A stretch of 47,764 nucleotides of DNA, counting the filler, from Jimgerdemannia flammicorona (Eukaryota), in assembly GCA_003990765.1 (NCBI GenBank). It is 2 parts of 2 records of this genome, joined end to end, with 100 filler letters (N's around TTAATTAATTAA, not from the genome) between each part and the next. Parts side by side here need not be neighbours in the genome. Positions count along the whole stretch, not along the records: positions 23,933 to 47,764 come from RBNJ01001057.1; 1 more part is not named here. One strand, written 5' to 3'. Below are positions 1,353 through 47,764 of the stretch, one piece after another; position 1 is the first letter of the stretch; every line of letters starts with the position of its first letter. The translations under genes and the position numbers were made by a program. The notes beneath the pieces were generated by a model. The model searched no databases and was not told the origin of the DNA. It saw nothing but the letters and a program-made list of their open reading frames with translations.

Positions 1353-1355
1353 ACT

Positions 1356-1372
1356 TGGTGCCCATTGGCTGG
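1356..1372 (+). promoter_or_regulatory. Primer-binding site (tRNA not assigned)
   Basis: TGGTGCCCATTGGCTGG, 3 nt after the LTR CA end. The same ACTTGG follows the LTR at 47758. Confidence 0.7.
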
Positions 1373-8051: not shown

Positions 8052-8069
8052 TTCTCAGTTGAGCCCCCA
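8052..8069 (-). promoter_or_regulatory. tRNA-Pro-type primer-binding site
   Basis: Minus strand TGGGGGCTCAACTGAGAA, 2 nt from the LTR end. Resembles the canonical tRNA-Pro PBS TGGGGGCTCGTCCGGGA with C>T/G>A decay. Confidence 0.75.
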
Positions 8070-8071
8070 AA

Positions 8072-19499: not shown

Positions 19500-19610
19500 C
19501 TCATCTCATTTCATTGTCTTGTCTTATCTTGTCTTGTCTCTCTTATCTCTCTTGTCTCTCTTGTCTCTCTCATCTCTCTTATCTCTCTTATCTCTCTCAT
19601 CTCATAGTCA
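19500..19610. repeat. CT-rich simple repeat (TCTCTCTTR-like units)
   Basis: Directly visible low-complexity pyrimidine tract. Confidence 0.85.
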
Positions 19611-20411
19611 CTATAGATAGAGATAGCTCACCACTATCATCCTGCTCTAGCTCTTTTGTGATTATATAATATATAATTAACCTACAACTCCAATATATTC
19701 AATTTACAAGCTAAGAGGCAGTATCTCACATCAACTTTATTATTAATATCTCTAACTATTACTTCTAGTAGAGATCATATATTATACTCAACTTTTCTGA
19801 TTAATGTAAAATATATATAAAACATATATATAGAATAGATTTTATCTTTTAGTTTTATTTTAATTTATATTATCTATTTTATCTTTATTAATTAAAATAG
19901 GTTTATATCTTCTTATATAGAATTTTTTTAATATAATTATAAATATATATTTTAACTATAGTAAAGTAACTAAAGCTACTTAATATTTATTTTCTTTATC
20001 TATAAATAAGAATATTTTTTAAAGTTTATAAAAAATAATTTTCTAAAATACTATTTTTCTATTAAAAATATAACTCAATTTTCTCAAATAATATATATCT
20101 CTTATTTTATAATAATAATTTTTTCATTAATAATTTTTATAATTTTTTTTTTTACTTATAGTTAAAATTTTATAAAAAATAAACTTTGGTTTTTAACAAG
20201 TTGAGTTATATTTATAGTAAAATGTAATTTATTTATTTTTTTTTTTTTTTAAATAAAATTATCTACTTAGTTATAGAGTAAGATATATGTATATATATAT
20301 ATTATCAAAAATGGAACTTTTATAATAAAAATGATTAGTTATTTTTTTTATAAAGTTATTCTAATTTTAGAAGTTATAAACTTTTAAAGTTAAACTCTTA
20401 AATATAAATAT

Positions 20412-22467
20412 TATTAAAATTTCTATTATTTTAATATTTTGATAATATAGCTTATGTGTAACTATGTCATCTTTATACTATGTCACTTAATATTTAAATA
20501 TATACTATTTGGAATAATTAATAATACTCTTTTTCTCTCTACTCTATATACTCAATAAAGATTATAAGCTCTGATTAGTGACTAATAAGAAATATCTCTC
20601 TAAGACTATATTATATACTACTCTATACCAAGATATTATAAATAACAAATCAAGGAGCTAGTATAAGTGTTTCAAACACAGTAGATACAGATACTTCCAG
20701 AATAGATACAATAGTCACAGTTTCTATAATAAATATAAATATAGTCAAGAGATCAATTCTAATCTTCAATTGTAAGAATTATACTATTTGGATATTCTAT
20801 ATGAATAATCTTCTAAAAGAATATAGCTTGGTAAAGTATATAAAACTGCAAGTACAGATTCAAGATTATAATACTATAAATAATTACTGAGTATTATAAG
20901 AGATTACTTTTATATTATTGAACTAGTAAATAAAGCTTATAATATATATTATGATAGCTTACAATATATGAAAGACTTTATATAATCATTATATAAGTAT
21001 CTTCATCAAATTAATTCTATCTAAAATCTCAGTTATTTAATTTATAAATAAAATCTAAAGAGAGTATTGGTAAATATATCAATTATATTGATAATCTAAT
21101 GAATCAGATGAATTCCCTAAGTATATCAGTAAAGTATATTAGTAATAAAGAGTAGACTTGGCAGAGTTTAAGAAATCCTATATAAGAAATTCAAAATGAT
21201 AAATATGGGTAATATACATAAGAGATATCTATCATATATAACAGAAGTATATATATCATATACTTCTTGTAGTCAACTTACATCTAAGCTATTCTAGAAT
21301 AATTCAATATGAGTAAATATAAGTCAGTAAATATACTTATAAAAACTTTAGTAAAGTTAAAAAAAACTCAAAACTAATAATAACAAAGACTATACTAATA
21401 TTCCCTATTAGCAAGAAGTTAGACCCCTTATGTATCTTATATTAAAAACAAGATCTAGTATCTCATATATCATAAATAAGATAATATAGTACTCATTCTG
21501 CTATAATAATTTATATTAAAGTACTATTAAAAGAATTTTTAGATATATTAAAGAAACAATATGCTATATATTTACTCTCAGTGAATTGAGTAAGAGTGGT
21601 AAGAATAATAATATATAACTATCTAATATATGTAATACTAATTAGGCTGAAGATTTAGATTATTACTAATCTATAACTGGGTACTTATTTTAGTTAAACA
21701 ATAAAGGAGTTGTATCTTGACAAATATGTAAACAGAGCTTAGTACTAATATCATCTATATAAGTAGAGTATCAAGTATTATTCACAGTAATCAAAGAAGC
21801 CATTTGGCTATATTAGCTATTAAAGAAACTTGACATTAATTAGAAATTATACTTTATACTCATCTATCAGAATAATCAGTCTATAATTACTAAGACCAAG
21901 AACTCTATTTAATATAGCAAAACAAAGCACATTAATATACAATATTATTATATAAGAGAATAAATAGAAAATGAGACTATATACTTAGAATATAATATAA
22001 TTATAGATTTGCTTACCAAAGCTCTTTCAGAATCTAAGTTTAAGTAATGTACTAAAGAAATAAGTCTTATAGTAAACTATATATCAGCAATAAAACTATA
22101 TACCAGCAATTGATAATTATGGAATATTTTATAATAAAAAGAAAGTTAAAAAACAATGTAATATATATTTCTATATATCTCTCTCTCTTCTTTTTCTTCT
22201 TCTTCTATATTTGAGTTTTTCTAATATTAGAATCTATTGATATATATTCATTATTTTTACTATAATTTTTTAATTTTAAGCATAGATAGATAGTATTCTT
22301 TTAGTATATTTACAGTTATTTTATATTTAATACTTAGTTATATTATATTTCTACTTATATTACATTCTTGCATATTATCTCATTGAGTGGAAGTATTGAA
22401 ATTCCTATTATTTTAACATCTCAATAATGTAGCTTATATATAACTATGTCACCTTTATACTATATTT
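20412..22467 (+). mobile_element. Internally deleted, heavily decayed Ty1/copia element
   Basis: Matching LTR starts at 20412 and 22394 (TATTRAAAT.. from TGTTGAAAT). PPT-like GAGTGGAAG before the second. Copia RNase H at ~21700-22050: VVS*QICKQSLVLISSI*VEYQVL..IKEAIWL..QNNQS..SKTKHINIQYYYIRE..DLLTKAL. The 3' LTR is cut at ~22467. Confidence 0.85.
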
Positions 22468-22650
22468 AGTGCTCCGAACGAATGGAGTTGATCCGGATGA
22501 GATTCGATTCAGATTCGTCATGTGATGGATTCGAATCAACTCGGATTGGTCTCGTGATCTGATCCGGATTGATCCGGATTGATCCGGATTGATCCATCCG
22601 GATTGATCCATCTGGATTGACCCATCCGGATTGATCCGGATTGACCAGCT
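22467..22650 (+). repeat. GATCCGGATT tandem array with GATTCGA/GAATC motifs; probable end of a non-autonomous DNA transposon
   Basis: About 8 GATCCGGATT-type units with CpG intact. Begins abruptly (TAGTGCTCCGAACG) inside the copia LTR. The transposon-end interpretation is inference. Confidence 0.55.
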
Positions 22651-23832
22651 CCTTTCTCTGCTACCTTACCGGTCACAAGGTTTGGTAGGCGACCTTCCGA
22701 GTCCCCTTTCCCCTATTATTACCCCCTCTACCTCGGGTTGGTTTGCTGTGCCTGTATGGGCATAGTGGGAGGAGGGCAATGGTGATGAGTTGCCTCTTTA
22801 TCAGTGTCAGATCGGTGTCTTCTCCACTTTTTCGCAGTTTCTGGTGTCTTCAGCTGCGTCTGAAGTGCATCCGTTTTGGTGCGGCGCCTTCTTCCTTTTG
22901 CCATCGTCAACAAGGTGCTGTCTCGGTGTGTCTCGGGCTACGTAGGGAGTCGGCTGACCTTGGGCATCAAGTGCTTAGTGTAGGTTACCTGCAGGTCCTC
23001 GGTGCCTATGGTGGGGCCCTCTGGCTTTGGCGAGCTTCCCGGCGAGCACGGTTCTGGCATAGGTGACTGCTTTTTGGGTGATGTCGGGATGGGAGGGGAG
23101 ATGGCCGTCACAGATAGGAGGAAGGGCGATTACGGTAAACCAGTGGGGTGCCAGGCTGGGGGCGGTCATCGGGGTTGGGGCAGACAATATTTCGGTGGGG
23201 CCTTTCGATTGGCTAGTGGGGGGTGGGCTGGTGCAGGGGCCGGCATCCTGGCTGTACCCAACTGGAACTGGGAGCTGACGCGGCAACGCGATCGAGGCCC
23301 GCAGGCTTGGGGAGTGGGACCTTCCTCATTTGGCAGTACCCAACTGGAACCGGGAGCTGACATGGCAACGTGATCGAGGCCCGCAGGCTCGGGGAGTGGG
23401 AGTGGGGTCTCTTCAGGCCCTAGCCTATGTGTAAGTCCTTTGAGGAAGGTGCTGCATATAAGTCCTTTACTCACCCGCTTTGAATCTACTTTGCTCTCTG
23501 TTGGTTGGTTGGGGGGTTTTTTTTCTTTGCCTCAGGCTTTCTTTTGGGGTTCGGGGGGCTATTCTTAATTCAGTCCCGGTGCTGCTAGATCCGACATGTA
23601 GGTGTGCTCTCGCGTGTAAACGATGATCCAGCCCTGGTGAGCAGACAAGTCTAGTCTATGTTGTTGGGGTCAACGTAGCCGGTGTTCGACAGGCATAGCT
23701 GGAGTGGTGGGACTGCTGGACAATTTCGTAGCCTAGGTTAATAGGGGGATATTGTTTGGTGGGTGGTGGGGGAGGGTTTTGGCCTATATAGTCTAGGTTC
23801 CCTTCCAATAAAATCCGCGGGACTTGAGTCCG
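22651..23832 (+). mobile_element. ~1.18-kb non-autonomous retroposon, copy 1 (least mutated; runs into the gap)
   Basis: Homologous to 28835-29968 and 33399-34586 with the same 5' start CCTTTCTCTGCTACC. AATAAA at ~23808. Internal ~66-bp duplication at 23254-23320 / 23336-23401. Confidence 0.85.
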
Positions 23833-23931: not shown

Positions 23932-23941
23932 NGGGGGGGGT

Positions 23942-24670: not shown

Positions 24671-27097
24671 TCAACCACTCTTGACCTCTCCCTTCTCCTC
24701 CCCGTCCTCTTCTTCCACGCTCCCCGCCTCTTCTTCCAACACCCTAATCAAATCCCCCCTCTCACTCAACTCTTTCTCGGCCCACTCCTTAACTCTCTTC
24801 CTCGCCCCCTTTACCCCGCCCTTCCTCGCAAATGCCAACAAAGTTCTGACGGTCTTCTCATCGATTTCAATCACCCCACCTCTCGGTCTAGGGCCACCCT
24901 CACCGCCCTTCCCCATCTTCCTCACGACTGCAAACGCCTCCTCCCACGCCTTCTCCGTACGCTCAGCCTTCTCACCTCCCGCGAGGGGCGTTCTGCTCAC
25001 GCACTCGACGAACGAGCACCAGTTATTCACGTTAGCCGGGAATCCCTTGCGCGTCAGCCACATCCAGATCTCCCTCGCCTGGTTTCCGCGCCCATTATGC
25101 CCACATGCATCAAGAACAATCGATACCGTAACATTATCGAACGCAAACTCCGTCCGGTTCCCATTCGCTTCCGCCACATCCCCGCCGGACGCCTGGACGA
25201 GTGTATCCCAAATCCTCAAGACGGCGATAACGTCCTCAGCGCGAGAGAAGGCATTCATGAGGGCGTTGTAAACGGCGATGTCTGGATCTAGGTGTAGATC
25301 GACCTTGATAAGCCTGTGGACATGCTCGACGAGCGCCAGGTCTGTTCCGCGCGGGTCGCGGGCGGCGGCAGCGAGGAGGGCGGTGTAAATGTACGAATTC
25401 GAGCTGACGCGGTAGGAGCGCATGTCGGCGAAGAGGTCGAGCGCTGTTTCGAACGCGTAGTTTTCGTCGTCGGTGGTGTCGTGCTTCGTGAGGGCAGAAA
25501 TGAGGGCAGCGTAGAATGTCGTGTCGAGGCGTGGTGAGGGGAGGGGCTGGTCGCGGAGGAAACGATATGTCTCCATGGCGTGGTTCAGCTCTCCAGCATT
25601 GATGTACGCGACGATCAAGCTCGTGTACACTGCCACATCAGGCTTGTAGCTCACGGCCCCACCGGGTCCTCCCGTTTTCGGAGTTGCAAACACCTCATCA
25701 AACACACTCTGCGCCCCCGCAGCATCGCCATTCTTAGCCATCCTGTCCAAGACGACTTTCCAGACCCCCGCTTCCATCCCAACGCCATAGCCATACTCGT
25801 TCACAGCCCCTTTGACCCTCTCCATTGCCTCACTTGTCCTCCCAGCGGCGACCAAGGCCGTGACGAGCCCTGCAAGGACGCGTTCGTTTGGTGTGACGCG
25901 AGCGATGCGCATGTCATCGTACAGAGCCATGGCTGCTTGCGGGTTGCCTAGCTTAGACTGCGTGTCCATGAGGATGCCGTAGGTGACGACGTCGGGGTCG
26001 ATTCCGCTGTTGCGCATGTCTCCAAACACGGCGTGGGCGGAGGCGGGGATGTCGTGTTTGAGGCAGGCGTCGAAGAGGGTGTTGTATGTGACGATGTCCG
26101 GTTGTACGTTGGGAAAGAGCGTGGGCATGTTGTTGTAGATCCTTAAGGCCTCTTTGACACCATCGATGTTGAACGCGAGGAATTTTAGCAGAGTGTTAAC
26201 GGTAGTGATATCGACCTGTTGACGGAGGCGCGCACGGCGCGGAGAGAGGATGTCGTCGTGTAGGAGATTACCCATGGAGATGTTATCGAGATGGGTTGCG
26301 GCGGAGAGGAGGGTGGCGTAGGTGAATGTGTCTGGGTCAATGCCGACCACGAGCATGTTGGTGTAGATGGCGTAGGCATCCTGGAGGCGGTCGTGCTTGA
26401 GGTAGAGATCGATCATTGTGTTGAAGGTGACGGTATCCCGGGGGATGTTGTGGTCAAGCATGTCGTTGTAAACGTGGACCGCACCTTTGCTATCTCGGGC
26501 CCGTTTGAAGGCGGCGATGATGGTGTTGTATGTGTGCGTTACGGGGGCGACGTCGTTCTCGCGCATAAGGGCGAGAAGGCGGAGAGATTCGGTGGGGTTG
26601 CCGTGGAGGCCGTGAGCATGCATAAGGCAGTGGTATTCGAAATTGAGGGGTTTGATGCCAAATTTGTCGTGCATATCGGAGAAAAGGCGGGAGAGGAGTT
26701 CGAGGTCGGCGCTGTTTTTACTCTTGTGGAGGGCGAGCATGGCGTTACGAAAGGAGGGTTGGGTCAGGTGGCACGAGGCTTCGGGATCGGCGAGGATATG
26801 GCGGTAGGTGGAGTGGAGGAGGGGAAAGTTTGATTTGGAGGAGGCCTCTTCGAAGGCATTGAGGAGGTCGGCTGAGGATGTGGTGATAGGAGTGGGGACG
26901 GTTGCCGAGGTTCGTATTTGGGCTTCGGTCGGCTGTGAAGGGGGGGGGTTAGCTGGGCCTGTGGTGAAACGGACTAGGGGAACGACCGGACGCTGTTGTG
27001 GTAGTGAGGGCGTGCGCTCTACTGCGACAGCCAAGGTGGCCCACGTGGGGCTACGGCGTGCGACGCGAGAGAAGGCTGTCCTCGCCGGCAGCAGCAT
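24671..27097 (-). CDS. Pentatricopeptide-repeat (PPR) protein, 808 aa, probably mitochondrial RNA-binding
   Basis: Single open frame from ATG 27097 (MLLPARTAFSRVARRS, presequence-like). Many 35-aa PPR motifs (THTYNTIIAAF, DTVTFNTMIDLY, PDIVTYNTLFDAC, PDVVTYGILMD, PDIAVYNALMNAF). Confidence 0.95.
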   Translation of the reverse strand: MLLPARTAFSRVARRSPTWATLAVAVERTPSLPQQRPVVPLVRFTTGPANPPPSQPTEAQIRTSATVPTPITTSSADLLNAFEEASSKSNFPLLHSTYRHILADPEASCHLTQPSFRNAMLALHKSKNSADLELLSRLFSDMHDKFGIKPLNFEYHCLMHAHGLHGNPTESLRLLALMRENDVAPVTHTYNTIIAAFKRARDSKGAVHVYNDMLDHNIPRDTVTFNTMIDLYLKHDRLQDAYAIYTNMLVVGIDPDTFTYATLLSAATHLDNISMGNLLHDDILSPRRARLRQQVDITTVNTLLKFLAFNIDGVKEALRIYNNMPTLFPNVQPDIVTYNTLFDACLKHDIPASAHAVFGDMRNSGIDPDVVTYGILMDTQSKLGNPQAAMALYDDMRIARVTPNERVLAGLVTALVAAGRTSEAMERVKGAVNEYGYGVGMEAGVWKVVLDRMAKNGDAAGAQSVFDEVFATPKTGGPGGAVSYKPDVAVYTSLIVAYINAGELNHAMETYRFLRDQPLPSPRLDTTFYAALISALTKHDTTDDENYAFETALDLFADMRSYRVSSNSYIYTALLAAAARDPRGTDLALVEHVHRLIKVDLHLDPDIAVYNALMNAFSRAEDVIAVLRIWDTLVQASGGDVAEANGNRTEFAFDNVTVSIVLDACGHNGRGNQAREIWMWLTRKGFPANVNNWCSFVECVSRTPLAGGEKAERTEKAWEEAFAVVRKMGKGGEGGPRPRGGVIEIDEKTVRTLLAFARKGGVKGARKRVKEWAEKELSERGDLIRVLEEEAGSVEEEDGEEKGEVKSG

Positions 27098-27269: not shown

Positions 27270-28518
27270 ATGAGCAAGCGGAAGACACAAGACCTCCACG
27301 AAAAACCCCCCGTCGACATGGACGTCGACAACCATCCCGAAAACGACCACCCCGACGACAGCAATGATGACGCCGACGACGACGACGACGACGACCTCCA
27401 GCACCTGGTGGACGTGGACTTTGAGTTCTTTGACCCCAAACCCGTCGACTTCCATGCCCTCAAGCGCCTGCTCACCCAGCTCTTCTCCGCCGACGCCGAA
27501 CTTTTCAGCCTCTCTGAACTGACAGACCTGATCCTCAGCCAGCCCTTGCTCGGCTCTACCGTCAAGGTCGACGGATCCGAGTCAGACCCCTTCGCGCTCC
27601 TGACCGTGTTGAACATGAATGAACACAAGGTAACCAAATTTACCCTTGACTCTCTCAAGTCATTTTGAAATTCTCCCTTCCACTTGCATACCCCATTGAC
27701 TTTCCCTTTTGACATCTATCACAGGATAAGAAACCAATCCAGGAGCTTCGCAAGTACCTCCTCGAAAAGATCCCTAAGAAGGACACCGCCCTGCAGTCCT
27801 CCCTCTCCGAGATTCTGTCGGCCGACCGGCCGCAGAGCAGGGACGTGGGCATTATATTGTCGGAGCGGCTGGTCAACATGCCTGTGCAGATTGTCCCGCC
27901 TATGTACAAGATGCTTATGGAGGAGATAGAATGGGCCGTCGAGGACGTGAGTATTATCTTCTTCGTTCGTGCAGTACAGCGTGGTTGAGGGGTCAGTGTG
28001 TGCTTCTTGATGCGTGTTCGTGTAATTTGGTTGTAATCGTGCTCGTGCTGTTTCCAGAAAGAACCATACGACTTCGAATGGTATGTGATCCTCTCCAAAA
28101 CTTACAAAGAGGTTGCCCCGACCGCTGACGACGACGACGACCCCGAGCCCAAACCGAAGAAGAAAAGGGCCAAAATGGTATGTCCCCCCTCCGCCCCTTC
28201 CCGCTTTTTACCTCTTCCACACCCCTTCCAATTCCCCATCTCCTACTCCCTCCTTCCGACCCTCCCGTCCTCAATCCACAGCACCAATCGCCCGCGGACC
28301 CGGTGACGTTCTATTTCCATCCTGAGGACGAGATCATCGCGCGGTACTCGTCGCATGCGTACGACTTCCGACTCACGCGTCAGGACGCCGATTCCGCGGC
28401 GGACTCGCGGCGCACCTTCTCCGAATTCGGTATAGCCCCCGCTAGGCGCGTATTTGTCGTCCGGGCGGATAGAATGGCCGCACTCATTGAAGAGATGGAT
28501 AGTGCGTGTGCGGTATGA
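27270..28518 (+). CDS. BCP1: Bcp1/BCCIP family 60S biogenesis factor, 312 aa; exons 27270-27629, 27725-27946, 28058-28177, 28282-28518
   Basis: Acidic N-terminus, then VDVDFEFFDPKPVDFHALKRLLTQLF, GSTVKVDGSESDPFALLTVLN, GIILSERLVNMPVQIVPPMYKML and FHPEDE. Three phase-0 GT-AG introns join into one frame. Confidence 0.95.
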
Positions 28519-28834
28519 TGAGGTGGAGGTGAGAGAGAGGAAAGACGAGGGGAGGAAGGATAGGTCGGTGTATATTGCGGAGGACGACGAGATTGAATTT
28601 GCGCTATTGTATTAAAATGCATATATAATGAACACATATTTTCGTCGTGCGCAAAAGTGACTGTTTGGCGTTTTAATGGGGATCCCAGACCTCTCCCGAC
28701 CGACCGACCGACCAAGACTGTGTTGGGCGATTATGGGGTTTGTGTGATGTCAGTGAAATGGAAGGATATCCTCTTTTGCGCGGGTTTATGTGTATTGTAT
28801 GGCCTGTTCATTGAGACACCAGCTTAGGCATCTC

Positions 28835-29968
28835 CCTTTCTCTGCTACCATACCAGTCACAAGGTTTTGGTAGGCAACCTTCCAAATCCCTTTTCTACAA
28901 CTTATACTTCCTCTACCTCAGGTTGGTTTACTGTACCTATTGCAAGGCAGTGGGAGAGAAGCAATGGTGATGTATTGCCCCTTTATCAATATCAGATCAG
29001 TGTTTTTTCTACTTTTTGGTAGTTTTTGGTACCTCTAGCTATATCTGAGGTATATTCATTTTGGTGCAGTACCTTCTTTCTTTTACTGTTATCAATAAGG
29101 TGTTATTATGATATATTATAGATTATATAGAGAGTCAGCTGATCTTGAGTATCAAGTACCAGTGTAGGTTATTTACAGATTATTAGTATCTGTGGTAGAG
29201 TCCTCTGAGCTTTGATGAGCTTTTTGATAAATATAGTTCTGATATAGATGACTGTTTTTGGATAGAGTTAGGATGAAAAGAGAGATAGTCATCATAGATA
29301 AGAGAAAGAGTAATTATGGTGAACCAGTAGAGTGCCAGATTAGAGGTAGTTATCAGGATTAAGATGGGTATTATCTCAGTGAGACCTTTTGATTGGCTGA
29401 CAGAGAGTAGGGCAGTATAGTGGCCAGTATTCTGGCTGTACTCAATGAAACTAAGAGCTGATATAGTAATATAATCAAGATCCACAGACTTGAGAAGTAG
29501 GACCTTTCTTATTTAGTAGTATCTGACTAGAACCAGGAGCTAATATAGTAATATGATTAAGGCTAGCAGGCTCAGAGAGTAAGATTGAAGTTTTTTTAGA
29601 CCTTAGTCTATATATCAGTCCTTTTGAGAGAGTCTCATATATAAGTCTTTTACTTACTTACCAAGAATCTATTCTACTTTTTATTGATTAGTTGAAGGGT
29701 TTTTTCTTTATCTCTGACTTTTATTTAGAGTTAGAGAGATTATATTGTTCAGTCTTAATATTACTGAATCTGATATATAGATGTACTCTTGTAATATTAG
29801 TCTGATGATCTAGCTCTGATAAATAGATAAGTCTAATCTATATATATAGTAAGAGTTAGTATATTCAATATATATAGCTAGAATGGTAAAACTACATATT
29901 CTCTCTATAGTCTAAGAATAATGAGAGAATAGTACTTAGAGAGAGAGTAGGAGAGAGTTTTAGTCTAT
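28835..29968 (+). mobile_element. ~1.18-kb non-autonomous retroposon, copy 2 (most mutated; 3' tail missing)
   Basis: Colinear with copy 1 from the identical 5' start. CpG is absent and TpA enriched. Confidence 0.85.
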
Positions 29969-32900
29969 CAGAAAATCAATCTATATAAATTACATATCAC
30001 ATTTTGAGGACTTAACTGAAAAAGTTTTCTAAAGACTTGACCATCTGGCTCAAGAACTTAACAGCCATCTATAGTAGAGGATTTAAAAGAAACTAGCCAA
30101 CAGCAGTCTGTTTTAGAAATAGAAGTATACACTATTATCAGGATAGCTTTCATCTTGTTCAGAGCCAGTAGTCAAGAAACTGAATCAGAAGAAAGAAGTG
30201 ATATAGATTATAGTTTAATCTCAAAAAAAAAGATGTCTCAGAGGACAACCTGAGTCTATATAGACCTAAGGTCCAGAATAAGAAGAAGATTTTCCTGAAG
30301 AATACCAGACTCTAATCTACAGAAGAGATTTAGGCAAAAGTAATTACATTACTACTATTATCATCTAAGCCATATTACTGAATTAAGTATATTTTTAAAT
30401 ATCTGAAAAAGAAGAAAATTACTATTCTTATCTTTTAGAATAAGAGAAAGATAGTAATTAGAAAATCTAATTAGATTACTTAAGAGATAAATTCAACCTT
30501 TATCACTACTTAGACAGAAACATAGACCCTTGATAAGATGAACAGAACTCTACTACTTCACAACAGCAAGGGGCAGATGAACTAAACATTAGCTACATTA
30601 GTCTTATTTCAATTACCAAAATCTCAGTATCTTGATCTTTTATATCCTGATACTATTCTCAAGAGATAAGAAGCTCTAGTCCTCTCAGTATCTTAGTATT
30701 TAGTAATTGCTATTGCTTAGTTAGAGAACTATCACTATTAAGAACTACTATTCTAGTTTTAATTAAAAAGACCAGACTCTCTCATCCTCACCAAGACACT
30801 ACCTTTTATCAGTACTATTAGTTCATTAAGCATCTCTACTATCTCTATCCTAAGCATTATTAAGAAACTCTATTCTAAAACTAGACTCAGACAGTAAAGA
30901 TAAACCAGACATAAGCTATTTTCAGAAATTCCATAATATAGATAGTGAATATATTAAGGAATTCTTTAGAGAAATTGAAGTACAAGTAGCAGCCAAGTAG
31001 TAGAATGCCTACAGAAAGCTCAGGATTGTAGAATCACTTCTGAGAGATCCTACTCTATAGAAGTATAATCAAGTAAAGTAAATTGGAGGAGATATCTATA
31101 GAACAGAATAAGTCAACAATTTTCAAGTAAATAAAGACTATGTAGATAGATATAAATAAAGACTATGCAGACAGATATAACATCCATAAGGCCTGACTCC
31201 ACACTCAGTTCAATAGACTTAAGTATTAATAAGAAGTATAAAAAGCTTTGATCTATATGAGCCAAGCTACTAATAAAATTCTAAAAAGCTTCTATTATTG
31301 AATTTAAGCTCAAATGATTAAGACAAACTTACAACCTATAGTCTAACTAGTTCTGATCTCAACTACCTTCCTCAATGAAATATTCCCAGAGCTTCAAAGA
31401 TAAGTTATTAGAATAAATTATTAAAGTATTGAGTAATAAGTTGCTAGAGCACAAAAATGTTGGAAAGCAGACTATAAATTACTCCAGTAGATATAGGAAT
31501 ATTGAGAAACAACTTAAGTTGAAATCTCAAGAACTTGCAGAATGACTCTAGAATAAAAAAATACCTACTTGAGAGCTCAGTTGGCTAACTATGAGACCAG
31601 ACCCCTATTCTCAATTCTAACTTAGTATAGATAATAATAGCAACTCCCACCAAGAACTCAAGAAGACACTATAATAATACTTACTAAATAAATAAAAGAT
31701 CTAGCTATTATAGTTACTCAGTTAAAGAACTAAGAAAGAAGATAGTAAGATTATTATCAAGATAATAAACCAGACTACCAACAGTAAAATAGCAGAAGCT
31801 CTACTCAGGCCCCACTAGTTATAACCATAGATTTATCAGTGATAGGTTTCTATATCTCAACTTATTTTAACTGTGGAAACTAAGGTCACATTCAGAGATT
31901 CTGCTCAAAGTAACAGACTCTGTCTAATGATAAAAATGTCAACCTCATTTAGATAGATGAAGAAACTTGAGAAATGGAAGAAAAAGCTATCTGGCTTCAT
32001 GATCAAGATGATACTTATCTATACTATGAAGCCTTTTCTTTTAAGATAACTTGAAATATAGCATCTGCTCAGATCAGAGGATGAGGAAGACTTTTAAAGA
32101 CCCCACTTCCACCACTATTGACAGTAATCATATCTATAGGCAAATATCTGAGATATGGCCATTTTCTCCTCAGATACTCCTCTAGAGAAGGATAAGAGAA
32201 TTAGAAGAGATACTCCTGAATCAGAAGCTGGCCCATTGAGAGTATCAAGAAGTATCTCTCTGCTTGACCTTGAAGAAGAAGAACACATGAGTATAGAATT
32301 TTCAGCTGACAAAATATCCAATAGAAATGAGAGGATTTATCCTAAGAGACCTAGACATCAAAAGAGTAGTAAACTCTATAAAGCAGCATTACTTTGAGAA
32401 CACCTCCATACTCAGAATATAGGCCTTACATTTAAATAAGTCCTTAAGAATATACCAGAAGTTAGGTAAAAATTTCTAAAGGAAGCCAAAGAAGATATCA
32501 AGAGAATTCTTATCCAAGAACTATATATATTGGAGCTTAGTACTATCTATACAGTTTATAAACACCAGTACCAAGAACATCAATCTATAAGACTAGCTAA
32601 TGGAAAAGTACATAGTGAAAATATCCAAATTCTTGTTAATACTAGAGTAGTAGTTTACATTATTACTTAGTAAATATTAGAAATAATTAGATAGAGAATT
32701 GATGAAAGAATGAAAGTGAGAGTTATCATAGCAGATGGATCAGCATTCACTCCTCTTAGACTAGTCAGAGATATACTCATTTAAGTTGAAAAGATCTGTC
32801 TCAATATATCTTAAGCTATTATAACCCCAGTAATCTTCTATGATCTAATCCTGGGAACTAACTGGTTGCACCAAGTTGGAGCTAATATAGATATCAAGAA

Positions 32901-33398
32901 GCAACTTCTAGTCTTCACCTTTTATAGACAAAAGTACAAGATACTAATTGAGTCAAAAGAATTAAGAAAAGTAAGTCAGGTCTCTAAAATAAAATAGCAA
33001 AGATATAGATATATATATATCTACTACTACTGAGGATAAAAGTGAAGCAAATTTTCTATAAGAACTAGAAAGTAATTTTGATACTCCTAGAGACTCTAAA
33101 AGTAGTCAATAAGATCTTTTTGTTGATGAGTGAAAATGGTTATAATATTCACACATATCTAGGTAGAAGGCTTATATAATTCAGTTTTTCTTCAAAGGTA
33201 GAGATAGTTATATAGATAGTCCTATATATTTATATGCTACTTCTTTACTGATAGCTTAATTGATACTTTCTTCCAGGCTTTCAGTATTGATTACTCTAAG
33301 GAATAACTGTAGTGACTGTCAAATTCTTGATCTTAAAAAGGATTCAATACTAGCAATTGAAGATAAGGATAAGTTAAAATAAGTTTCTCAAAAATTCC

Positions 33399-34586
33399 CT
33401 TTCTCTGCTACCTTACCAGTTACAATGGTTTGGTAGACAACCTTTTGAGTCCACTTTCCACAATTAATACCTCCTCTACCTTAGGTTGGTTTGCTGTATC
33501 TATTGTAGGGTAGTGAGAGGAAGGCAATAGTGATGAGTTACTCCTTTATCAGTATCCAATCAGTGTCTTCTCTACTTTTTTATAGTTTCTGGTATCTTCA
33601 GCTGTATCTGAAGTATACTCATTTTGGTGCAATGCCTTCTTTCTTTTACTATTACCAATAAGGTATTATCTCAGTATATTGTAGATTATATAGGGAGTCA
33701 GCCAACCTTGGGTATCAAGTGCCCAGTGTAAGTTATCTACAGGTTCTCAGTGCCTGTGGTGAAGCTCTCTGGCTTTGGTGAGCTTCCTGGCAAGTGCAGT
33801 TCTGGTGTAGATGACTTTTTTTCAGGTGTTGTCAGAATGAGAAGAGAGATGGCCATTATAGATAAAAGGAAGGACAATAATGGTGAACCAGTAGGGTGCC
33901 AGGCTGGGAATAGTTATCAGAGCTGAGATAAGTACTGCTTCAGTGAAGTCTTTTAATTGGTATAGAGTGGTTAGGTAGTAGGTATCACTCTTGACTTCTT
34001 TTGGCAATATGTGAGGTTGGGCCCTGATTATTGGGGAGGAGGTTGAGGGGCCTGAGACTACCTATTTTAGATATCTTGGCTACACTTAACTGAAACTGAA
34101 AGCTGATATAGCAATGTGATCAAGGCTTGTAGACTTGAGTAGTGGAATATTAGAGATCTCCTTCCACCTTATATGTAAGTTCTCTACTTACCTTATCTGA
34201 GAGAATTAGGCCCTATCTACTATAATATACTTTGATGAGAGTTTTTTCTTTATCTGTCATTCTCCTTGGAGTGATAGGAGCTATTATATTTGGCTTAAGT
34301 ATAGCCTTATATATATGTTGGGGTTTCAGATATGCATTTTCAGTCATTAGTATATAGCTGGATTCCCTCTGATGGTAGAGAGAGTATAGTGTACAGAATA
34401 AGGTATGGGTCACTATAGGCCCTGCTATACCTGATATAGTTAAGCTATTGGATAATAGCTAGTCTAGATTAATGAGAGGGCAGTGCTTAATAGATGGTGG
34501 GGGAGAGTTTTGGCCTATATAGTCTAGATTCTCTTCTAATAAAAATCCACAAGACTCTGAGTCCATAAAATAAAATAAAAAATAAA
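33399..34586 (+). mobile_element. ~1.18-kb non-autonomous retroposon, copy 3, complete with (TAAAA)n tail
   Basis: Same 5' start, AATAAA at ~34538 and a TAAAA-repeat tail. Probable 7-bp TSD AAATTCC (33392-33398) / AAGTTCC (34587-34593). Confidence 0.85.
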
Positions 34587-35149
34587 TAAGTTCCTATTCT
34601 CATATATACAACCATCTACTCCTAAAGTTTTTAAGATCTATAAAGAAGAATAGAAGATTCTCTCTTATCAATCTTTGGAGATCCTTATAATTGAAGACAA
34701 AAATAATAGCATCTATATCATCATCTGAGCTCTCTAGATCACCCTATCTATCTATAATAAATATTGAAAGAGATACTCAATAAGTAAGAAAATCAAATAG
34801 TAGAATAAGGAATTTATCAATAAGAATACTATAATTGTGAAAAGACCTTTATCTATTACTAATGCAAGCACCAAAGTGTCCACCTTAGTGAAGATGTCTA
34901 TAAGAGCCAAGTTAAGAGAAAGGACTCTATCTTATAAGAATCTTGAATTTACTAGGTCTGTCAAAAATACAAAAAGATCAACTATGAAGAGGACTGTAAA
35001 GCCAAGAATAAGATCTCTATCTGGGATCTACTATTAGAAATTCTTACTATAATCTATTAGTATCATCTTTTATTAGTAACATTCAGATGACATAAGACTC
35101 AGACAATACTTTTTACAATGTTTTTGATGATAGACGACTATTGACATAG

Positions 35150-37012
35150 ATGGCAATGATTGAACTAGTGAGCATACTGGCCAGGGGGGCAGTGGTGCCT
35201 TTGGCTGGCAGCAAGTGGGGAGGAGGAGAGATGGTTTGGAGATACCAGAGGCCTCAATGGCTGGTCAAGGTACTGGTGATAGAGGGAGAGGCAGCTTGAG
35301 GCAATAAGGAGGGGAGAGGTCAATCTTTGCTGATAAGGTCAAGATAAAGAGAATGGCCTTGGGTCTGGATAGCTGGCTGGGCCTGGGGAAGGCATTGTTA
35401 GCTACTGCTGGGGGTTAGGAAGGAGTGCCCAGGAGAGCATCTGGTGATAGAGAAGGGGGAGGAGTAGGGGCTGGTGATGTAACTGTTGATGGGGCTGTGA
35501 CTGGGGATCAGGAAAAAAATCTAGATGTGATAGTGGTTATTAGTTCAGGACAAAGGGTGGGCATAAGGCCCAGGGACCTGGTGGATGGGGTGACAGACAT
35601 GGTGTCAACACTGTTACTCAAGAAATCAAGATCAGAATTTACTATCATAATATATTTCAGGGGCTTGGCAGTAACTGTGAGGATGATCTTGGGGCTGGTA
35701 GCACAGAAAGTGAAGGGGGCAGTGTCAGTGAAGTTTTTGAAGGGGAAAGAAGGGGTCAAGGTGGGATTTGAGGAAGAGGAAGCATTATTGGCTACTATGG
35801 AGAAGAGGGTGACAGTGGGCAAAGTTGTGGTCCCTATAGCCATATATATGCACTGGGACCCCTGAGTGGTGTAGTTGATAGTATTGGATCTTCCTACAGT
35901 ATTGAGAGAGAGGGCCAGAGAGTTGATTGTGGGGACAGTCAAGGAGTATGGGGAGATTGTGGACATTAGGTTCAAGGTCTGAGAAGGAACAGAGCTCTGG
36001 ACTGATAATGTTGATGTCCAAGTGAGGCTGGCTAGAAAGGAGAACATGGGAAAGATGAGAGATTGGCCAGTGACTCTGAAGTGGGAACTGGTAGAATGTA
36101 AGATCATGCAAGTGAAGGAGACTCTAGAAGAGAAGGAGATTGGCTTGGCAGGAGTATGAAGCAAAGATGGTAGTGGAAGTAGTCAAGGAGAGGAGGACCA
36201 AGATGGACAAGGTGATCTGGGAGAAGATACAAGGGAGGAGAATCCAGAAGGAGCTGCTGGCAAAGTTAGGGGGTAGTGGAGCTGGCAGTAGTATAGGGGA
36301 CAGGAGTGCAGGATTGCATGCGAGTGACTGGGTGGGGGGAAGTGAGATGGCCCAAGGTAGAGCCCAGGATAGACCAAGGAAGGAGGAGTAGGGTGGTGTA
36401 GAGGTGGATGCAGAGATGAGTAAAGGAGTCCAACCTCAGTATAGTATCCCAGAGGGGGCAGGGGGTGAGGAGGAGTTACTGGATGTCCTGGATGAGGAGT
36501 GGGATGAGTCAGTAAGGAGGAGCACTCTGGTGGATCTGGGGGTGGGGGATGGTCAGGTTGCCCAGAGTATGGCAGAGGCAGTAGATGAGGAGAAGTAGCT
36601 GTAGAAGACTTTGGAAGGGGTGGCAGCAGAGGAGCTAGGGGGTGAGGACTTTCAGGTTATAGAGGAATGGCATTGGGAGGAAATTCTTTGTAGAGAGGAG
36701 GTGCCAAGGAAGGTTAGGAATAAGGTCCTGGCAGTACTATTGGAATCAGTTGAATATCAGGTCAATGATCAGAGAGAGGAGGAACTCCAGGAGATTGTGA
36801 ATGATAGGACAGCTTACTTGTGGGGATCAAGAAAGGGATTGGAGAAGTGGAGAGTGGTCAGCATGAACTATTGGGCAGAGATAGAAGTGGTGGATGAGAT
36901 GAAATGTCAGGAAATCTTAGAGGCATTGAATGCTCAGACTATATCAGAGGGGGATTTGGAAGTAGAGCAACAATTGGATCTGGCTGGGGATGAGATGAGT
37001 ATAGAATACTAG
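35150..37012 (+). pseudogene. LINE ORF1 (decayed)
   Basis: ATG 35150 followed by a chain of ORF fragments broken mainly by TAG/TGA and ending just before ORF2. Confidence 0.7.
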
Positions 37013-37043
37013 GCTGGGTTATCACATTCAAACATTATTCAAT

Positions 37044-40000
37044 ATGAACAGTATAACTAGAATATTCTCTTTGAATATAAATGAGTTGAGGGGGGCAGCT
37101 TGGCAGAAGTTCATATTTGGTTGGCTCAAGGGGCTGGATGTGGATCTCTTTTTACTGCAGGATGTATATTACAAGGCAGAAGTGGACTTTCAGGATTGGA
37201 CTAGGGAGTGGGGGGGAGCAGTAGTATGATTTGGGTGGGTGGATATCTTAGTGTAGAAGGAGATAGGGGACATTGGTGATATAGGACATTGGGGGAGTCA
37301 GTTGGTGTAGAGAGTGTGGAAGAGACCTGGTTAGAGCCCTCTGATAGTTGGATCATATTATTGCCCAGCAGAGAGAGGGGAGCAGGTGGACTAGATCAGG
37401 AATTTGCAAGAGGCTGGTGTTATGGTTGAGGCTGAGATTGAATGCCTGGAGGGGGATTTCAATATGGTATAGGATAATATAGTAGACCAGACTGATGGTG
37501 AGAGAGGGTTGAAGGACCAGAGTGACAGGTTGGATGGTTGGATGGAGATGGAGAGATTGAGCTCTCTGGTGGATTCGGGGAGACAGTTCTTGGAGGATCA
37601 TTGAATTTATACTCACTGGGCAGCTGGACTGAGTTCTAGAATTAACTGGATACTGATGACAGAATGCTGGAGAGTGGATGTCTGGGCCATGCTGGAGGTA
37701 GTGTAGTGTCCATAGTCTGATCACTGGGGTCTGCTTGGGGGGGGGGAGGTTTGGGGGAAGTGGGGATGGGCCTGAACATTGGTGGCTCAATTCCTCTTTG
37801 TTGGAGAATAGCGATTTATGGGCTGACTGGGAGACAGAGGTTATTGAAAAAATCAGTCAATGGCAGGAGCAGGGCCTGGTAATAGAAGATCATTGGAGAA
37901 GGCTGAAATCGAGTGCTCAGAGATATTGGAGGGAGGCAGGGAAAGGGAGGAGTACTCAGTGGTGGCAGAGAGTGCACTGGACCTCGCAGTGGCTGGGGAT
38001 GCTCCTGGAGAGATGGGCAGGAGTACTAGAAGATAGAGAGGTGGTAGACTGGCATATTGTAAGGATTCAGAAGGAAGTCAGGAAACTTAAAGAGGTGCTA
38101 TGATTGGAAAAAGAGGCTAAATTAAAGGGGATGGTGGCAAGATTGAGGTGGCAAGGGTTGGAGGAAGGGGAGCAATCCACTCAGTTTTTATCATGGATGT
38201 TACAAGTGTGGAGAACTAAGCAGTAGTGGGATAGCATCTTGGATGAGGATGGGGAGATGGTGGTGGAGACTCCAGTGATTCTGGGATTGCTAAGATCCTG
38301 CTGGAAGGACCTATGGAGTGAGGAAGAAGGGGGTGGAGATGCCTTAGACATTGAATGGCAGCTGGAGGGTTGGTATCTGAACCCAGCAATGGGTCTAGGG
38401 GCTCTGGGGGACTGAGTGAGAGGGGAGGAGGTGTGCAAGGTCCTGGCTTCAACAAGCAAGGGGACAGTACCAGGAGAGAATGGGCTTCTCTGGGATTTTT
38501 AGAAAAAGATGGTCAGGGTGGAGACAGTGTTGGAGAAGTTGACAGGGATGTGCAATGAGGTTCTTCAGTCTGGAACTTAGATTGGGGGCCAGCATCTAGG
38601 GCTGGTCTCTTTGCTCTTTAAGAATAAAGAGAGAAGGGAAGATTGGAAGAACTAGTGTCCAATCATACTCCTTGATATGAACTACAAGCTGGTTATGAAG
38701 GTCTTGGTGACTAGGCTGCAGAGGATCACTCAGCAAGTACTGGGAGTTGAGTAGAGAGGTTTTGTTGGTGGTTGGTTGATTCGAGATGGGACAGCCTGGG
38801 TCTATGGAGTGATTGAAGGGGCTCAGGCTGCCAGGGTTAATAGCTGACTGGTGTTTCTGGATCAAGAGAAGGTATATGATAGAGTGCAGAGGATCTGGCT
38901 AGAAGGGGTGCTGAAGTAGGTGGGTGTTTCACCAGGGTTCTGGAGGTCATTAATCAGTCTTTTGGAGGACAGTTAGGCAGCCTTAGTAGTCAATGGACAC
39001 AGGGATATCACCTTCCCTCTGGGTCATAGGGTGCTACAGGGGGATCCTTTGTCACCCATCTTGTATGCCCTTTCCTTGGAGCCCCTATTGGATAGAATCA
39101 GGCATCAAATTGGGGGTTTGGACATTCTAGGGATTAATTGGAAGGTAGGGGTCTTTGCAGATGATATGGTAGTTAGATTGGGTTCATTGGCAGATATGGA
39201 AGAATTATGGCAGACTGTAGAATAGTATGAGAGAGACTCTGGTGCTAGGCTCAATTGGCACAAATGTGAGACTATGGGTTGGGTGGAGGAATAGTTGGTG
39301 GTAACATGATTGAGATGATAGTGCTAGCAGGGGATCCTGTTCGCTATCTGGGGATCTATTTCTCTATATATGAGTCTCTTCTTCCTCATGCTTAGTGGAA
39401 ACAGCAACTCCTAGTATGGGGGGATGTGCTTTTATGGTAGGGCAGATGGCACATTTTCTTGGCAGGAAGGGTGATGGTGCTAAATATATATTGGCTGCTG
39501 AAGTTGTAGTATGTGAGGTACCATCTGGACTTCCTAGCATAGGTAATAAGGCACCTGCTGAAGATGGCAAAGACATGGATCTGGGCTGGGCAGCAGAGTC
39601 AGATAGGATGGGAGGTGCTGACTCTACCTATGGATAGTGGCAGACTGGGCTTGGTAGACTTCCCCAAATGCCTTCATTGCTTGCAAGCATGGTGGCTGAA
39701 GAGGGTAAGTGAGTTATAGAGACAGGAGTGAGTACCACTCATGCAAAGGGTGTGGGAGGCCTGGTATTCTCCCTGTGGTATATCTGGTGATCTGCTTGCA
39801 ATGGTGGCCCTGGATGGGAGCAAGAGGATGTGATATAAGAGCTTTTGGTGGGAGTAATGGATGGTGCCCAGAGAATTGATCTGCAATAGCAGGGTGATGA
39901 AGGTGAGGGAGATTGGGGACCACAGATGTGGAGATGGGACAGGCTTCTGTTAGGTGGCACTTTGGTAAAGGACTTTTGGCTTAGCAATGGTGTGGAGTGC

Positions 40001-40660
40001 TTGCGGAGCTTAGGGGGGGACCTGTGGCCTATTGTGTGGCAGAGAGTAGAGATTGGTGAGGGGTGGGACTGGAATGGGCTTTGGTCTTGGAGTAAGCAGA
40101 TGATACAGTAGCTCCCCCCCAAGTTCTGAGTAGTGTGGTGGTGGTTTCTAAGGCAGAATGTGATGTTGAACTTTCAGTCTGAGCACTTAGTAGTAGATGG
40201 CCAGTATGAGTGTGAGGAATGTTTGGATGTTGGGCAGGAAGGGGGAGTGATTCAAACACCTGAATATTGGCTTGGTGAGTGTGACATTCTGGGGGTTTTT
40301 TGGCACTGTATTGCAGACAGATTAGAACTGTGAGCACTAGTAGGAGGGGAAGGGAGGAGATGGGGAGAGCTCTACTGCAGGTTAGTGGGGAGAGTTAGTG
40401 ATGAATGGCTGACCCTGGGTTGGGCTCTGGTAATTTGGGTAGGGCTAGTCAGATATTAATTATATGTATTCGAGGAGGGTTGGTAGATAGAGATTGGAGA
40501 TAGGGTGGCATGGTGGGAATGGCTGTTATTAGACATTTTGAATAGCTGGTGATGGTGGTGGGGACCTGGAGGGGGTAGGTGCCAGGGACTGGTGAAGTAT
40601 ATATACCGAAAAAGTAGAGGGTGGGTCTGGGTGGTGGGTAACTGGGTCATCTTCCAATAA
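37044..40660 (+). pseudogene. LINE ORF2: APE endonuclease, reverse transcriptase and C-terminal Cys motif (decayed)
   Basis: RIFSLNINELR..DLFLLQD, GDFN and SDH (APE). FLDQEKVYDRV, LQGDPLSPILYALSLEPLL, VFADD and RYLG (RT). CEEC..TPEYWLGEC near 40210-40282. Confidence 0.92.
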
Positions 40661-43800: not shown

Positions 43801-45240
43801 CAGACAATTATTGAGATCTTATATAATGAAATTTTTAGTTACCATGGTGTCCCTAAGGAAATCATTACAGACTAAGGCTGAGAATTTATCAACAAAGTTA
43901 TAAAGATCTTTATAGCTAATTTTAAGATCAAACTATATTCAATAATAATCTATTATCTATAAGTAAATAAACTTACTAAATGAATAAACCAGATCATCAA
44001 GCAAGACCTCAGTAAGACTAAAGATCAATTGAATTAGGATATCTATCTTCTAGTAATCCTATTTAGTATTCATACTTTAAAAGTAACTACTACTCAATAG
44101 ACCTCTTTCTATTTAATATATGACCAAGAAGCACAAGACTCTGCTGAACCAATCTAGTTAGATTTGGTAAAATAAGTCACTAAAGAGATTACTTAGTTAT
44201 ATGAAATATATTAATAAGTACAAGGTTTTATTGTTAAAGTATAAGAGTGACAAAAAAAGTATTATAACTTTAAAGCAGATCTTGAACCCCTGCTTATTAG
44301 ATAATAAGTCTTTGTATACTATACTATTATAGAGGGAAACTGGAGTACTAAACTTGAACCAAAATGAGAAAGACCCTATCTTATCTATTAAAAGTTTATG
44401 AATCACACTTATTAACTCAAGACTCTAAATAGAGTTATACTTAAGACTAAGATAAACTACAACCATATAAAACCTTATTATTTAGTAGAAGTAAAATATA
44501 TTTAAATAACTCCATTCACTCTATCTGTAGTGTCTTTATTAGAGAATGATAGATGCTTTATATAGAACTCAAGAAAGCTGACAATGTTAAAACCAATCTC
44601 AAGTCTATCTATATAATAGATATTACTACTAGAAATTACCTCAAATTACAGAAAAATTTATTTCTGAGAGGTTTGAACCCTCAGCTATGACAATGGAAGC
44701 CCTTGTCTTAGACAAAAATAGTTAGTTCTTACAAATATATTAATAGTCAAAAAAAAAAAGAGAACTAAGACCTACTATTTTTATATAATTACCACTACCA
44801 AGAATGGCTCTAATTTTGTAAGAGGCAGATGTGATAATATCTTCAAAACTAGTAATATCAGAATTCAGAAGACTGTCTTGATATCACAAGCTACTAGTTG
44901 TAAATCATAACTTAATTATGACTCATCTTGATTATAAGATGATCTGTATCTAAACTTATTATAACTTATAATAACCCTAGTAGTATATTACTACTAGTCA
45001 GATAACTCTACTCTCTGAACTAAAGAAAGATATAAAAGAAGTATTAAGAAAAGAAGTATAAAGTATTAACTACAAATAGAAGACTTACTATAAAAACAAA
45101 ATATCTGTCATCTGCCAAAAAGCTAGATCAAGGAGCCACTCAGGTCTATCAGTTTAAGAATAGATATTTATTAATATTAAGAGAGCAATGAGACTGTATA
45201 CAAGAAGAACTCTTAGTCTGAATCTCTATATATATATATA

Positions 45241-47281: not shown

Positions 47282-47758
47282 TGTGACGGTACAGCCAGAT
47301 TTGGAAGAAGGAAATAGGGAATAGACACTTGATCGCACCCATTCCCAAAGTAGTATAGCATTATAGTTAGCAGTCCTCGATTTCAACATTGTCTAATTTC
47401 TTAGACATTGTCTAAATTTTAGACATTATCCAAATCGAATACCCCAATTTAGTATAGCATTTAGACATTGTCCAAATGTTTCGACAAAGTCCAAATGTCC
47501 CATTTATTACTTAGCCACCCTCTCATAGCTAGCAAACTTGTATAAATAACCCAGTATCTTCGAGTGAATAAACCTCAGATCGAAATAGTTCAAAGCAAAG
47601 AGATAGCAAAGGAACTAGTAAGCCTGCGGGCAGATACACTTCGAACTCACCCACCCTCTCCTGCAACTTCAAGAAGACTCTGCGAGAGTCAGAACAGTCA
47701 AGTTTTCAAGATACAGAAATCTGACATACTTTTAAGAGTAAGCGTCCGCTACGTTACA
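47282..47758 (+). repeat. 5' LTR of a second copy of the 895-2896 gypsy family
   Basis: Near-identical to 895-1352 and followed by ACTTGG (PBS start) at the window end. Confidence 0.92.
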
Positions 47759-47764
47759 ACTTGG

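Follow-up and report, generated by a model that had tools for sequence, protein, structure and literature searches.

Repeat-confined C>T decay in all four CpN contexts and three DIM-2-like genes in the Endogonales fungus Jimgerdemannia flammicorona

Introduction

Which process removes CpG, and many other cytosines, from the repeats adjoining an unmutated BCP1 gene of Jimgerdemannia flammicorona? The window analyzed, a stretch of 47,764 nt, consists of two joined records of assembly GCA_003990765.1, of which positions 23,933–47,764 are from RBNJ01001057.1. The original prediction was RIP-like hypermutation beyond CpG with a sharp boundary next to BCP1, possibly in an early-diverging fungus, by either a repeat-targeted mutator or broad-context methylation and deamination. 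The organism is indeed early-diverging: the PPR protein of the window falls in the same 90% cluster as a named J. flammicorona protein, and this mycorrhizal lineage belongs to the Endogonales of the Mucoromycota. Being outside Dikarya, it is no ascomycete with ordinary RIP. According to the kingdom-wide survey of Badet and Croll, RIP-like signatures occur only in ascomycetes (PMC12543289). J. flammicorona is listed there as no_rip (PMC12543289, supplement file 12): 23 k-mers were enriched in its non-coding DNA, but none in its repeats. Nevertheless, directional C>T change in every context is erasing these repeats.

Results

Host DNA of the window

The features of the window are listed in Table 1. 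G or C occupied 308 of the 433 four-fold sites of the PPR gene, and the BCP1 gene was CpG-rich and unmutated. The non-coding host DNA around these two genes had a GC content of 0.49 and a CpG o/e of 0.94, and the approximate introns of another host gene had values of 0.40 and 1.07, respectively. This non-coding and single-copy host DNA served as the neutral background, which is a compositional control and not a measured mutation rate.

Table 1. Positions of host genes, repeats and the CpG-free block along the window
Feature	Position	Strand	Remark
LTR-like repeat, young	892..1358	+	92% identical to 47279-47764; LTR label from the original prediction
Ty3/gypsy-type relic: protease, RT, RNase H	7700..11500	+	Domain matches
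Copia relic, probable	19600..22400	+	Retrotran_gag_2 E 0.027 (below cut-off) and motif read by eye
Copy 1, young retroposon	22648..23832	+	Ends at assembly gap
PPR gene, 808 aa, single-exon	24671..27097	-	Used to place the organism
BCP1/BCCIP gene with introns	27270..28518	+	BCCIP PF13862 E 4e-31; ends read from the sequence
BCP1 3′ flank, CpG-rich host DNA	28519..28782		Final CpG 28781-28782 is the boundary
CpG-free block	28783..35134		0 CpG vs 170 expected over 6,352 bases
Copy 2, old, heavily C>T-mutated retroposon	28833..29975	+	3′ end approximate
Ty3/gypsy-type gag-protease relic	30000..33390	+	RVP_2 E 0.003; GC 0.31, CpG o/e 0
Copy 3, old retroposon	33396..34564	+	Divergent middle; A-rich tail beyond 34564
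Dead LINE, intermediate decay	35000..40600	+	RVT_1 E 1e-20; ends approximate
Ty3/gypsy-type relic: dUTPase, RT, RNase H, integrase	41000..44500	+	GC ~0.27
Partner of the 892-1358 repeat	47279..47764	+	92% pair

A CpG-rich island at 16450-19500 (GC 0.50, CpG o/e 0.98) was flanked by relics of 12–24% GC. It contained short tandem repeats and belonged to a low-copy family, with pieces of 70–86% identity on ~12 contigs that retained CpG without directional C>T. No Pfam match was found in the one frame tested, and the island is probably part of an unannotated host gene family. A degenerate inverted repeat (15781-16185 and 19772-20160; 66% over 423 bp) flanked the island.

A retroposon in three copies

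Self-BLAST of the window revealed one repeat at 22651-23659, 28833-29841 and 33396-33960, with an extra 3′ piece at 34460-34564. The 5′ end of this ~1.19-kb repeat was fixed and its 3′ end carried a poly(A) tail. One of its genomic copies (L014) was surrounded by a ~15-bp target-site duplication, and six frames of copy 1 gave zero Pfam matches, on which a coding origin was rejected. Thus, by these features the repeat is classified as a non-autonomous non-LTR retroposon. Its 5′ motif, made degenerate for C/T and G/A, had 3,493 matches in the genome, and the reversed control had 0. Copy 1 was 94–96% identical to its 29 top matches in the genome, and 25 of its 154 CpG cytosines were changed. At least two subfamilies were distinguished (among L099–L188), which were alike over the first ~560 bp and at the 3′ end and differed in the middle. 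The commoner subfamily, with 39 of the 84 clustered copies, was not of the copy 1 type, and copy 3 may belong to it. Copy 1 was inserted in a CpG-rich tandem motif with a ~10 bp unit (22470-22647) adjoining the AT-rich copia relic. A short terminal hairpin was located right before the poly(A) tail (23813-23832; L002–L030), at which many contigs break.

C>T load of the old copies and the boundary at BCP1

Relative to copy 1, 281 of 628 C/G sites of copy 2 were changed by C>T (or G>A) and 31 of 485 A/T sites by T>C. In the 5′ half of copy 3, the only part compared, the corresponding counts were 106 of 315 and 16 of 243. The changes were thus one-way in both copies, as had been claimed. Moreover, no CpG of copy 1 was kept in copy 2 (0/50; 22 had become TA, 17 CA, 8 TG and 3 other) or in the 5′ half of copy 3 (0/28), in agreement with the claim that all CpG were lost. 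The changes CTGCGT>CTATAT, GTGCAT>GTATAT and GCTACGTAG>ATTATATAG were all present in the copy alignment. As CpG>TpA requires a second hit outside CpG, this conversion is internal proof of non-CpG mutability. The losses of copy 2 were 86/153 at CpA, 89/224 at CpC and 37/151 at CpT; CpA and CpC were both mutated as proposed, but "some at CpC" was too mild a description of a loss of ~40%.

The CpG-free block began 51 bp before the start of copy 2, close to the ~60 bp proposed for the sharp boundary, and the next CpG was found at 35135. The 502 bases immediately upstream of the block held 52 CpG. At its BCP1-facing end, copy 2 was less mutated at non-CpG sites over ~150 bp (9/61 vs. 0.34 pooled).

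A decay series among the other elements

The LTR-like pair retained 12–13 CpG, and its differences were mostly at CpG (transitions: 9 CpG, 4 CpC and 2 CpA; transversions: 3). The LINE had a CpG o/e of 0.04, and TAG/TGA accounted for 20 of the 23 stops in the scored part of its RT frame. This LINE copy kept 7 of 203 inferred CpG and lost 112/610 CpA, 122/1038 CpC and 38/606 CpT, with 4 T>C changes. The most decayed stage was the probable copia relic with a GC content of 0.20. The proposed series from LTRs with partial CpG loss through the LINE to gypsy relics was therefore seen, but "TpA-saturated" was an overstatement: none of the 49 relic windows had TpA/ApT>2 and 6/49 had a substrate index <0.7, both thresholds as quoted in PMC7296669. 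Ty3/gypsy-type relics were found as predicted, and the copia call is based on a weak gag match and a motif read by eye. Two dUTPase relics were found on opposite strands in the Ty3-type block, at 41000-41400 and ~45770-46100.

Mutation spectrum and copy ladder

The C>T changes of 30 young copies, which were the top matches of copy 1, amounted to 666/4537 at CpG, 145/4160 at CpA, 151/7453 at CpC and 54/4295 at CpT; ~94 of the 350 non-CpG changes were at five subfamily-shared sites. The corresponding fractions of 29 old copies, a biased set picked by likeness to copy 2, were 0.57 at CpA, 0.39 at CpC and 0.23 at CpT, with T>C at 580/12509. For a ladder across ages, a sample of 90 was drawn from the first 100 motif matches listed, leaving out six close to the start of a contig and the final four. 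As all were on long contigs, the youngest copies are under-sampled. Columns in which variants were shared between copies (151 with non-C>T and six with C>T) were removed together with their neighbors, and the 82 copies with at least 250 scored sites were then used.

The non-CpG load of these 82 copies was continuous from 0.02 to 0.47, and the order of contexts was CpG>>CpA>CpC>CpT. Over six bins, CpG survival was 0.35, 0.19, 0.10, 0.08, 0.008 and 0, and kA rose from 0.05 to 0.89. kC was ~0.5–0.8 of kA and kT ~0.13–0.4 of kA across bins; the relative rates kA:kC:kT stayed near 1:0.6:0.2 from young to old. Before saturation, CpG cytosines changed ~4–12 times faster than CpA. The load correlated with other substitutions (Spearman rho 0.67, n=82), but did not do so (rho -0.08) among the 31 old copies picked by likeness to copy 2 (the 29 together with copies 2 and 3). 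Moreover, it was higher with AT-rich flanks (Spearman -0.39 with flank GC, n=84). The same context order was given by the LINE and the retroposon in the per-family analysis that had been proposed as a check. The 30 LINE copies (the one of the window and its 29 best matches) kept 386/5615 CpG, with C>T at 2471/16944 CpA (0.146), 2942/28684 CpC (0.103) and 1166/16953 CpT (0.069), and T>C at 554/50076.

A simulation of independent hits with four rates (G8:A1:C0.55:T0.1) reproduced CpG survival and the CG>TA fraction along the ladder. At high load it gave values that were too low for CpC (0.32 vs. 0.42 observed) and CpT (0.085 vs. 0.18 observed). CpG-only decay was rejected, with a simulated CG>TA of 0.04 vs. 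0.55 observed in the oldest bin, and so was a model led by CpA, run with rates chosen for illustration, as it failed against the ladder.

In the 82 copies the excess over the T>C rate was 13–84 times for CpA and ~150–440 times for CpG cytosines. These ratios are inflated by the removal of shared-variant columns; in the unfiltered LINE, the CpA excess was 13 times. Non-CpG transitions were thus far above the compositional background. C transversions reached at most 1.6%, while CpA changes reached 59%. As mammalian CpG decay is ~10–15 times background, passive deamination may not suffice for an excess of this size.

Several other sources of the pattern were rejected. The residual correlation between old copies was at most 0.12 and the nearest relatives of copy 2 were 73–78% identical to it; the C>T changes therefore arose separately in each copy and were not shared by inheritance. 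Subfamily divergence was dismissed, as the excess survived removal of the shared non-C>T columns. A plant-type CHG preference was also dismissed, as CAG (0.51) and CCG (0.27) were not above other contexts in the old copies. Finally, a 5′ base effect was found in the young retroposons (L002–L030) and the LINE (L070–L098), in which ApCpG and ApCpA were the fastest and TpCpG and TpCpA the slowest. It is possibly the flanking preference of an enzyme.

Strand distribution, edges and host duplicates

One-way C:G>T:A change limited to repeated DNA was found, as in RIP. In Neurospora, 91.9% of RIP clusters are single-strand (PMC7296669). In the young copies, adjacent mutations were on the same strand in 494 of 986 pairs (0.501 vs. 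a null of 0.492±0.017), the per-copy strand chi2 was 26.6 on 29 df, and no spatial clustering of mutations was found in these 30 copies. Similarly, same-strand adjacency in the LINE was 0.639 vs. a null of 0.650±0.007 (6,549 pairs), and there was no per-copy strand excess (z2 25.2 for 30 copies, ~220 non-CpG hits per copy). A per-copy strand excess, though mild, was found in the 82 retroposon copies (chi2 of 58 vs. 39±7 and of 45 vs. 23±5). It was also seen in each of two subfamilies (56.7 vs. 39 at p 0.027; 21.1 vs. 12 at p 0.057), and no excess of same-strand adjacency came with it. Simulated single-strand bursts of 2 gave a chi2 of 89±17 vs. the 58 observed, and bursts of at least 3 never gave one that low; any bursts should therefore average <2. 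Thus, of the two distributions proposed as a check, scattered changes on both strands were found in both families, qualified by the mild per-copy excess in the retroposon. The adjacency and spatial tests revealed no single-strand clusters of the kind made per round by canonical RIP, while many very weak rounds are possible. Nor did the young copies have the Neurospora-type preference for CpA over CpG.

Retroposon ends beside CpG-rich DNA had 65 hits vs. 103 expected (nine copies, with copies 1 and 2 left out), whereas relic-flanked ends had 561 vs. 549 expected (65 copies; permutation p 0.006 between flank types). One of the nine host-flanked copies (L178) was an exception without a spared edge. 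The dependence of edge sparing on the neighborhood points to chromatin domains.

Canonical RIP is known to target any long duplicate above ~80% identity, host genes included. HSP70 paralogs of J. flammicorona, 91–92% identical over ~1.9 kb, had a CpG o/e of 1.03–1.12 and kept four-fold C before G at 40 and 36 sites, and many before A too. No targeting of long host duplicates was thus found in this one family, in which selection or gene conversion could mask it by holding the CpGs. On the features tested, canonical RIP is not the process.

DNA methyltransferase genes

PF00145 searches of the genome gave eight scored candidates, which were in three DIM-2-like genes (C8187, C11271 and C3657) or in DNMT2-like genes. 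The DIM-2-like genes were intron-bearing and had normal CpG content. None of these eight PF00145 candidates was RID-like, in a search whose sensitivity is lowered by introns and in an assembly that may be incomplete. DNMT1-like queries (P0062 and P0216) matched only the three DIM-2-like loci, weakly. The methyltransferase survey that the original prediction had called for thus yielded three DIM-2-like genes, with RID and canonical DNMT1 not detected in this limited search.

P0048, a named protein of J. flammicorona that corresponds to the C8187 product, had its best PDB match to 9BAQ (E 6e-39; animal DNMT1 1.5e-25), which is Neurospora DIM2 (PMC11315935). It aligned to 9BAQ across the RFTS, BAH and MTase regions, in keeping with a DIM-2 architecture. 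The domains of P0048/P0049 were DNMT1-RFD (weak), DUF7893, BAH (weak) and DNA_methylase. A short single exon alone scored higher to DNMT1. In a tree of 95 methylase domains, rooted at the midpoint and thin in outgroup sequences (one DNMT1-like, two bacterial-type), the C8187 protein was grouped with proteins of Phycomyces, Radiomyces, Glomeromycota and Basidiobolus, and this group was sister to a large clade holding Trichoderma proteins (FastTree 0.998). This tree thus places it with DIM-2 and not with DNMT1. Its closest named relatives were Phycomyces proteins, and Dim-2 occurs in Phycomyces according to reviews (PMC7862722, PMC13297926). For C11271 and C3657, the placement was based solely on tblastn scores, which were close in the case of C3657 (138 to the Trichoderma reference vs. 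118 to the DNMT1-like one). Judged by these sequence comparisons, the three paralogs are an apparent expansion. In addition, C58, C2181 and C1744 represent at least two DNMT2/TRDMT1-like genes by motifs read by eye. C1744 was rejected as RID or DNMT5, as the motifs in its frames, likewise read by eye, are those of a second DNMT2-like gene.

Discussion

The decay found in J. flammicorona is repeat-confined, two-stranded, scattered and roughly clock-like. Considered together, the spectrum, the ladder, the scatter, the spared edges and host paralogs, and the three DIM-2-like genes suggest that chromatin-directed, broad-context methylation of DIM-2 type, followed by one-at-a-time deamination, is probably behind it. 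DIM-2-family enzymes would methylate the cytosines of transposon DNA in heterochromatin, with CpG receiving the most and CpA, CpC and CpT less. The methylated bases would then turn into thymine singly and on both strands, CpG first and CpA and CpC afterward, ending at 12–30% GC. Targeting would follow the chromatin domain and not homologous pairing of copies, giving sharp borders at genes. The methylation itself, the roles of the enzymes and passive deamination as the chemistry are what we infer. In Zymoseptoria tritici, TE methylation by Dim2 follows CG>CA>CC>>CT (PMC8016269), which equals the order of mutation rates found here and thus supports DIM-2-type methylation. Of the two processes originally offered, broad-context methylation with scattered deamination fits, a mutator with the RIP-type signatures tested does not, and a repeat-targeted mutator enzyme that changes bases singly is possible.

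Such a mutator would be mitotic and DIM-2-dependent: one of the three DIM-2-like enzymes would promote deamination of the cytosines that it targets, or T:G/U:G mismatches would be left unrepaired. It could be the Z. tritici Dim2 phenomenon with a broader context that includes CpG, which we regard as possible but rather unlikely. It would account for the very high excess of C>T over T>C, and it is consistent with the three DIM-2-like paralogs and the mild strand excess in the retroposon. Moreover, it has a precedent, as functional dim2 raises the mitotic mutation rate of Z. tritici more than tenfold (PMC8016269). More than 98% of the mutations in that fungus, however, are at CA and CG is spared (PMC8016269), while CpG is the fastest here. 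The mutator as described there is therefore not the same as the one that would act in J. flammicorona. Local clustering is also absent, and the sequence data cannot tell a mitotic mutator from passive decay. A wider reading, in which the genome defense of the Endogonales is independent of RID and DNMT1 and an enlarged DIM-2 family not only methylates repeats at all four CpN but also actively mutates them during vegetative growth, is likewise put forward only tentatively.

Weak premeiotic RIP, triggered by homology over many sexual cycles with 1–2 changes per copy in each and accompanied by ordinary CpG decay, is considerably less likely than a mitotic mutator. One-way C>T only in repeats, the sharp borders, the lead of CpA among non-CpG contexts and the small strand excess in the retroposon would agree with it, and DIM-2 has been linked to RIP in Neurospora (PMC8016269). 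It is difficult to reconcile with the single-strand clusters of Neurospora, the burst simulations, the LINE that has no strand excess, the persistence of 94–96% identical copies among the 3,493 motif matches, the intact 92% HSP70 duplicates, edge sparing that varies with the flank, and the absence of a RID-like gene among the eight scored candidates. Generic GC-to-AT pressure in late-replicating, poorly repaired and non-recombining heterochromatin, acting without non-CpG methylation, is very improbable. Although the load tracks the AT content of the flanks as well as age, such pressure would not be expected to produce the strong 3′-base dependence, and the scarcity of C transversions and the composition of host non-coding DNA (GC 0.40–0.49, CpG o/e 0.94–1.07) also argue against it.

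In J. flammicorona, C>T mutation directed at repeats is seen apart from RID and from bursts that depend on pairing. DIM-2-type methylation predicts that methylation in J. flammicorona follows CG>>CA>CC>CT and is written by the DIM-2-like enzymes. The case also bears on whether DIM-2-linked mutagenesis predates RIP. If an active DIM-2 mutator were at work, it would amount to a "proto-RIP" outside Dikarya, missed by k-mer surveys, and may show the ancestral state of ascomycete RIP. As a practical effect, repeat ages and RIP indices will be misread in such genomes.

TEs of basidiomycetes reportedly undergo CpG/TpCpG hypermutation. Similar to these, the TEs of J. flammicorona show CpG-centered C>T decay outside ascomycetes; different from them, TpCpG is the slowest CpG context here and the non-CpG loss is large. 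Similar to RIP of Neurospora crassa, the process described here is one-way C:G>T:A in repeats, with gain of TpA from CpA, AT-rich relics and spared genes (PMC7296669). Different from it, single-strand clusters are absent, CpG is preferred over CpA, CpC loss is high and the classical indices are mostly unreached (PMC7296669). In addition, near-identical TE copies and host paralogs persist here, and RID was not detected in a limited search. With the Dim2 process of Z. tritici it shares a DIM-2-family enzyme, C>T limited to repeats and a mutation order that equals the methylation order there; besides the reversed standing of CpG, CpC here changes at ~0.6 of the CpA rate (PMC8016269). Z. tritici has rid and Dnmt5, whereas three DIM-2-like genes were found in J. 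flammicorona.

Phycomyces blakesleeanus, of the same phylum, has DNMT1, the canonical form of which was not detected in our limited search of J. flammicorona, as well as Dim-2. Its CpG-preferring repeat methylation of 2.2% at CG, 0.3% at CHG and 0.5% at CHH gives a CG-over-non-CG ratio of similar size to that found here (PMC7862722), and no report of a similar mutational ladder was found for Phycomyces in the literature searched. In the Entomophthorales of the Zoopagomycota, a repeat-associated C>T signature has likewise been proposed outside Dikarya, e.g., a RIP-index signal of 24.2% in Zoophthora radicans (PMC10515909). That proposal is based on dinucleotide indices, whereas in this study the spectrum was polarized for each copy separately and speaks against true RIP. 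Such a decay pattern was not found described for Endogonales in the open-access literature, judged mostly from titles and abstracts. Our results add a copy ladder, a strand test with a bound on burst size, an edge that depends on the flank, and spared host paralogs.
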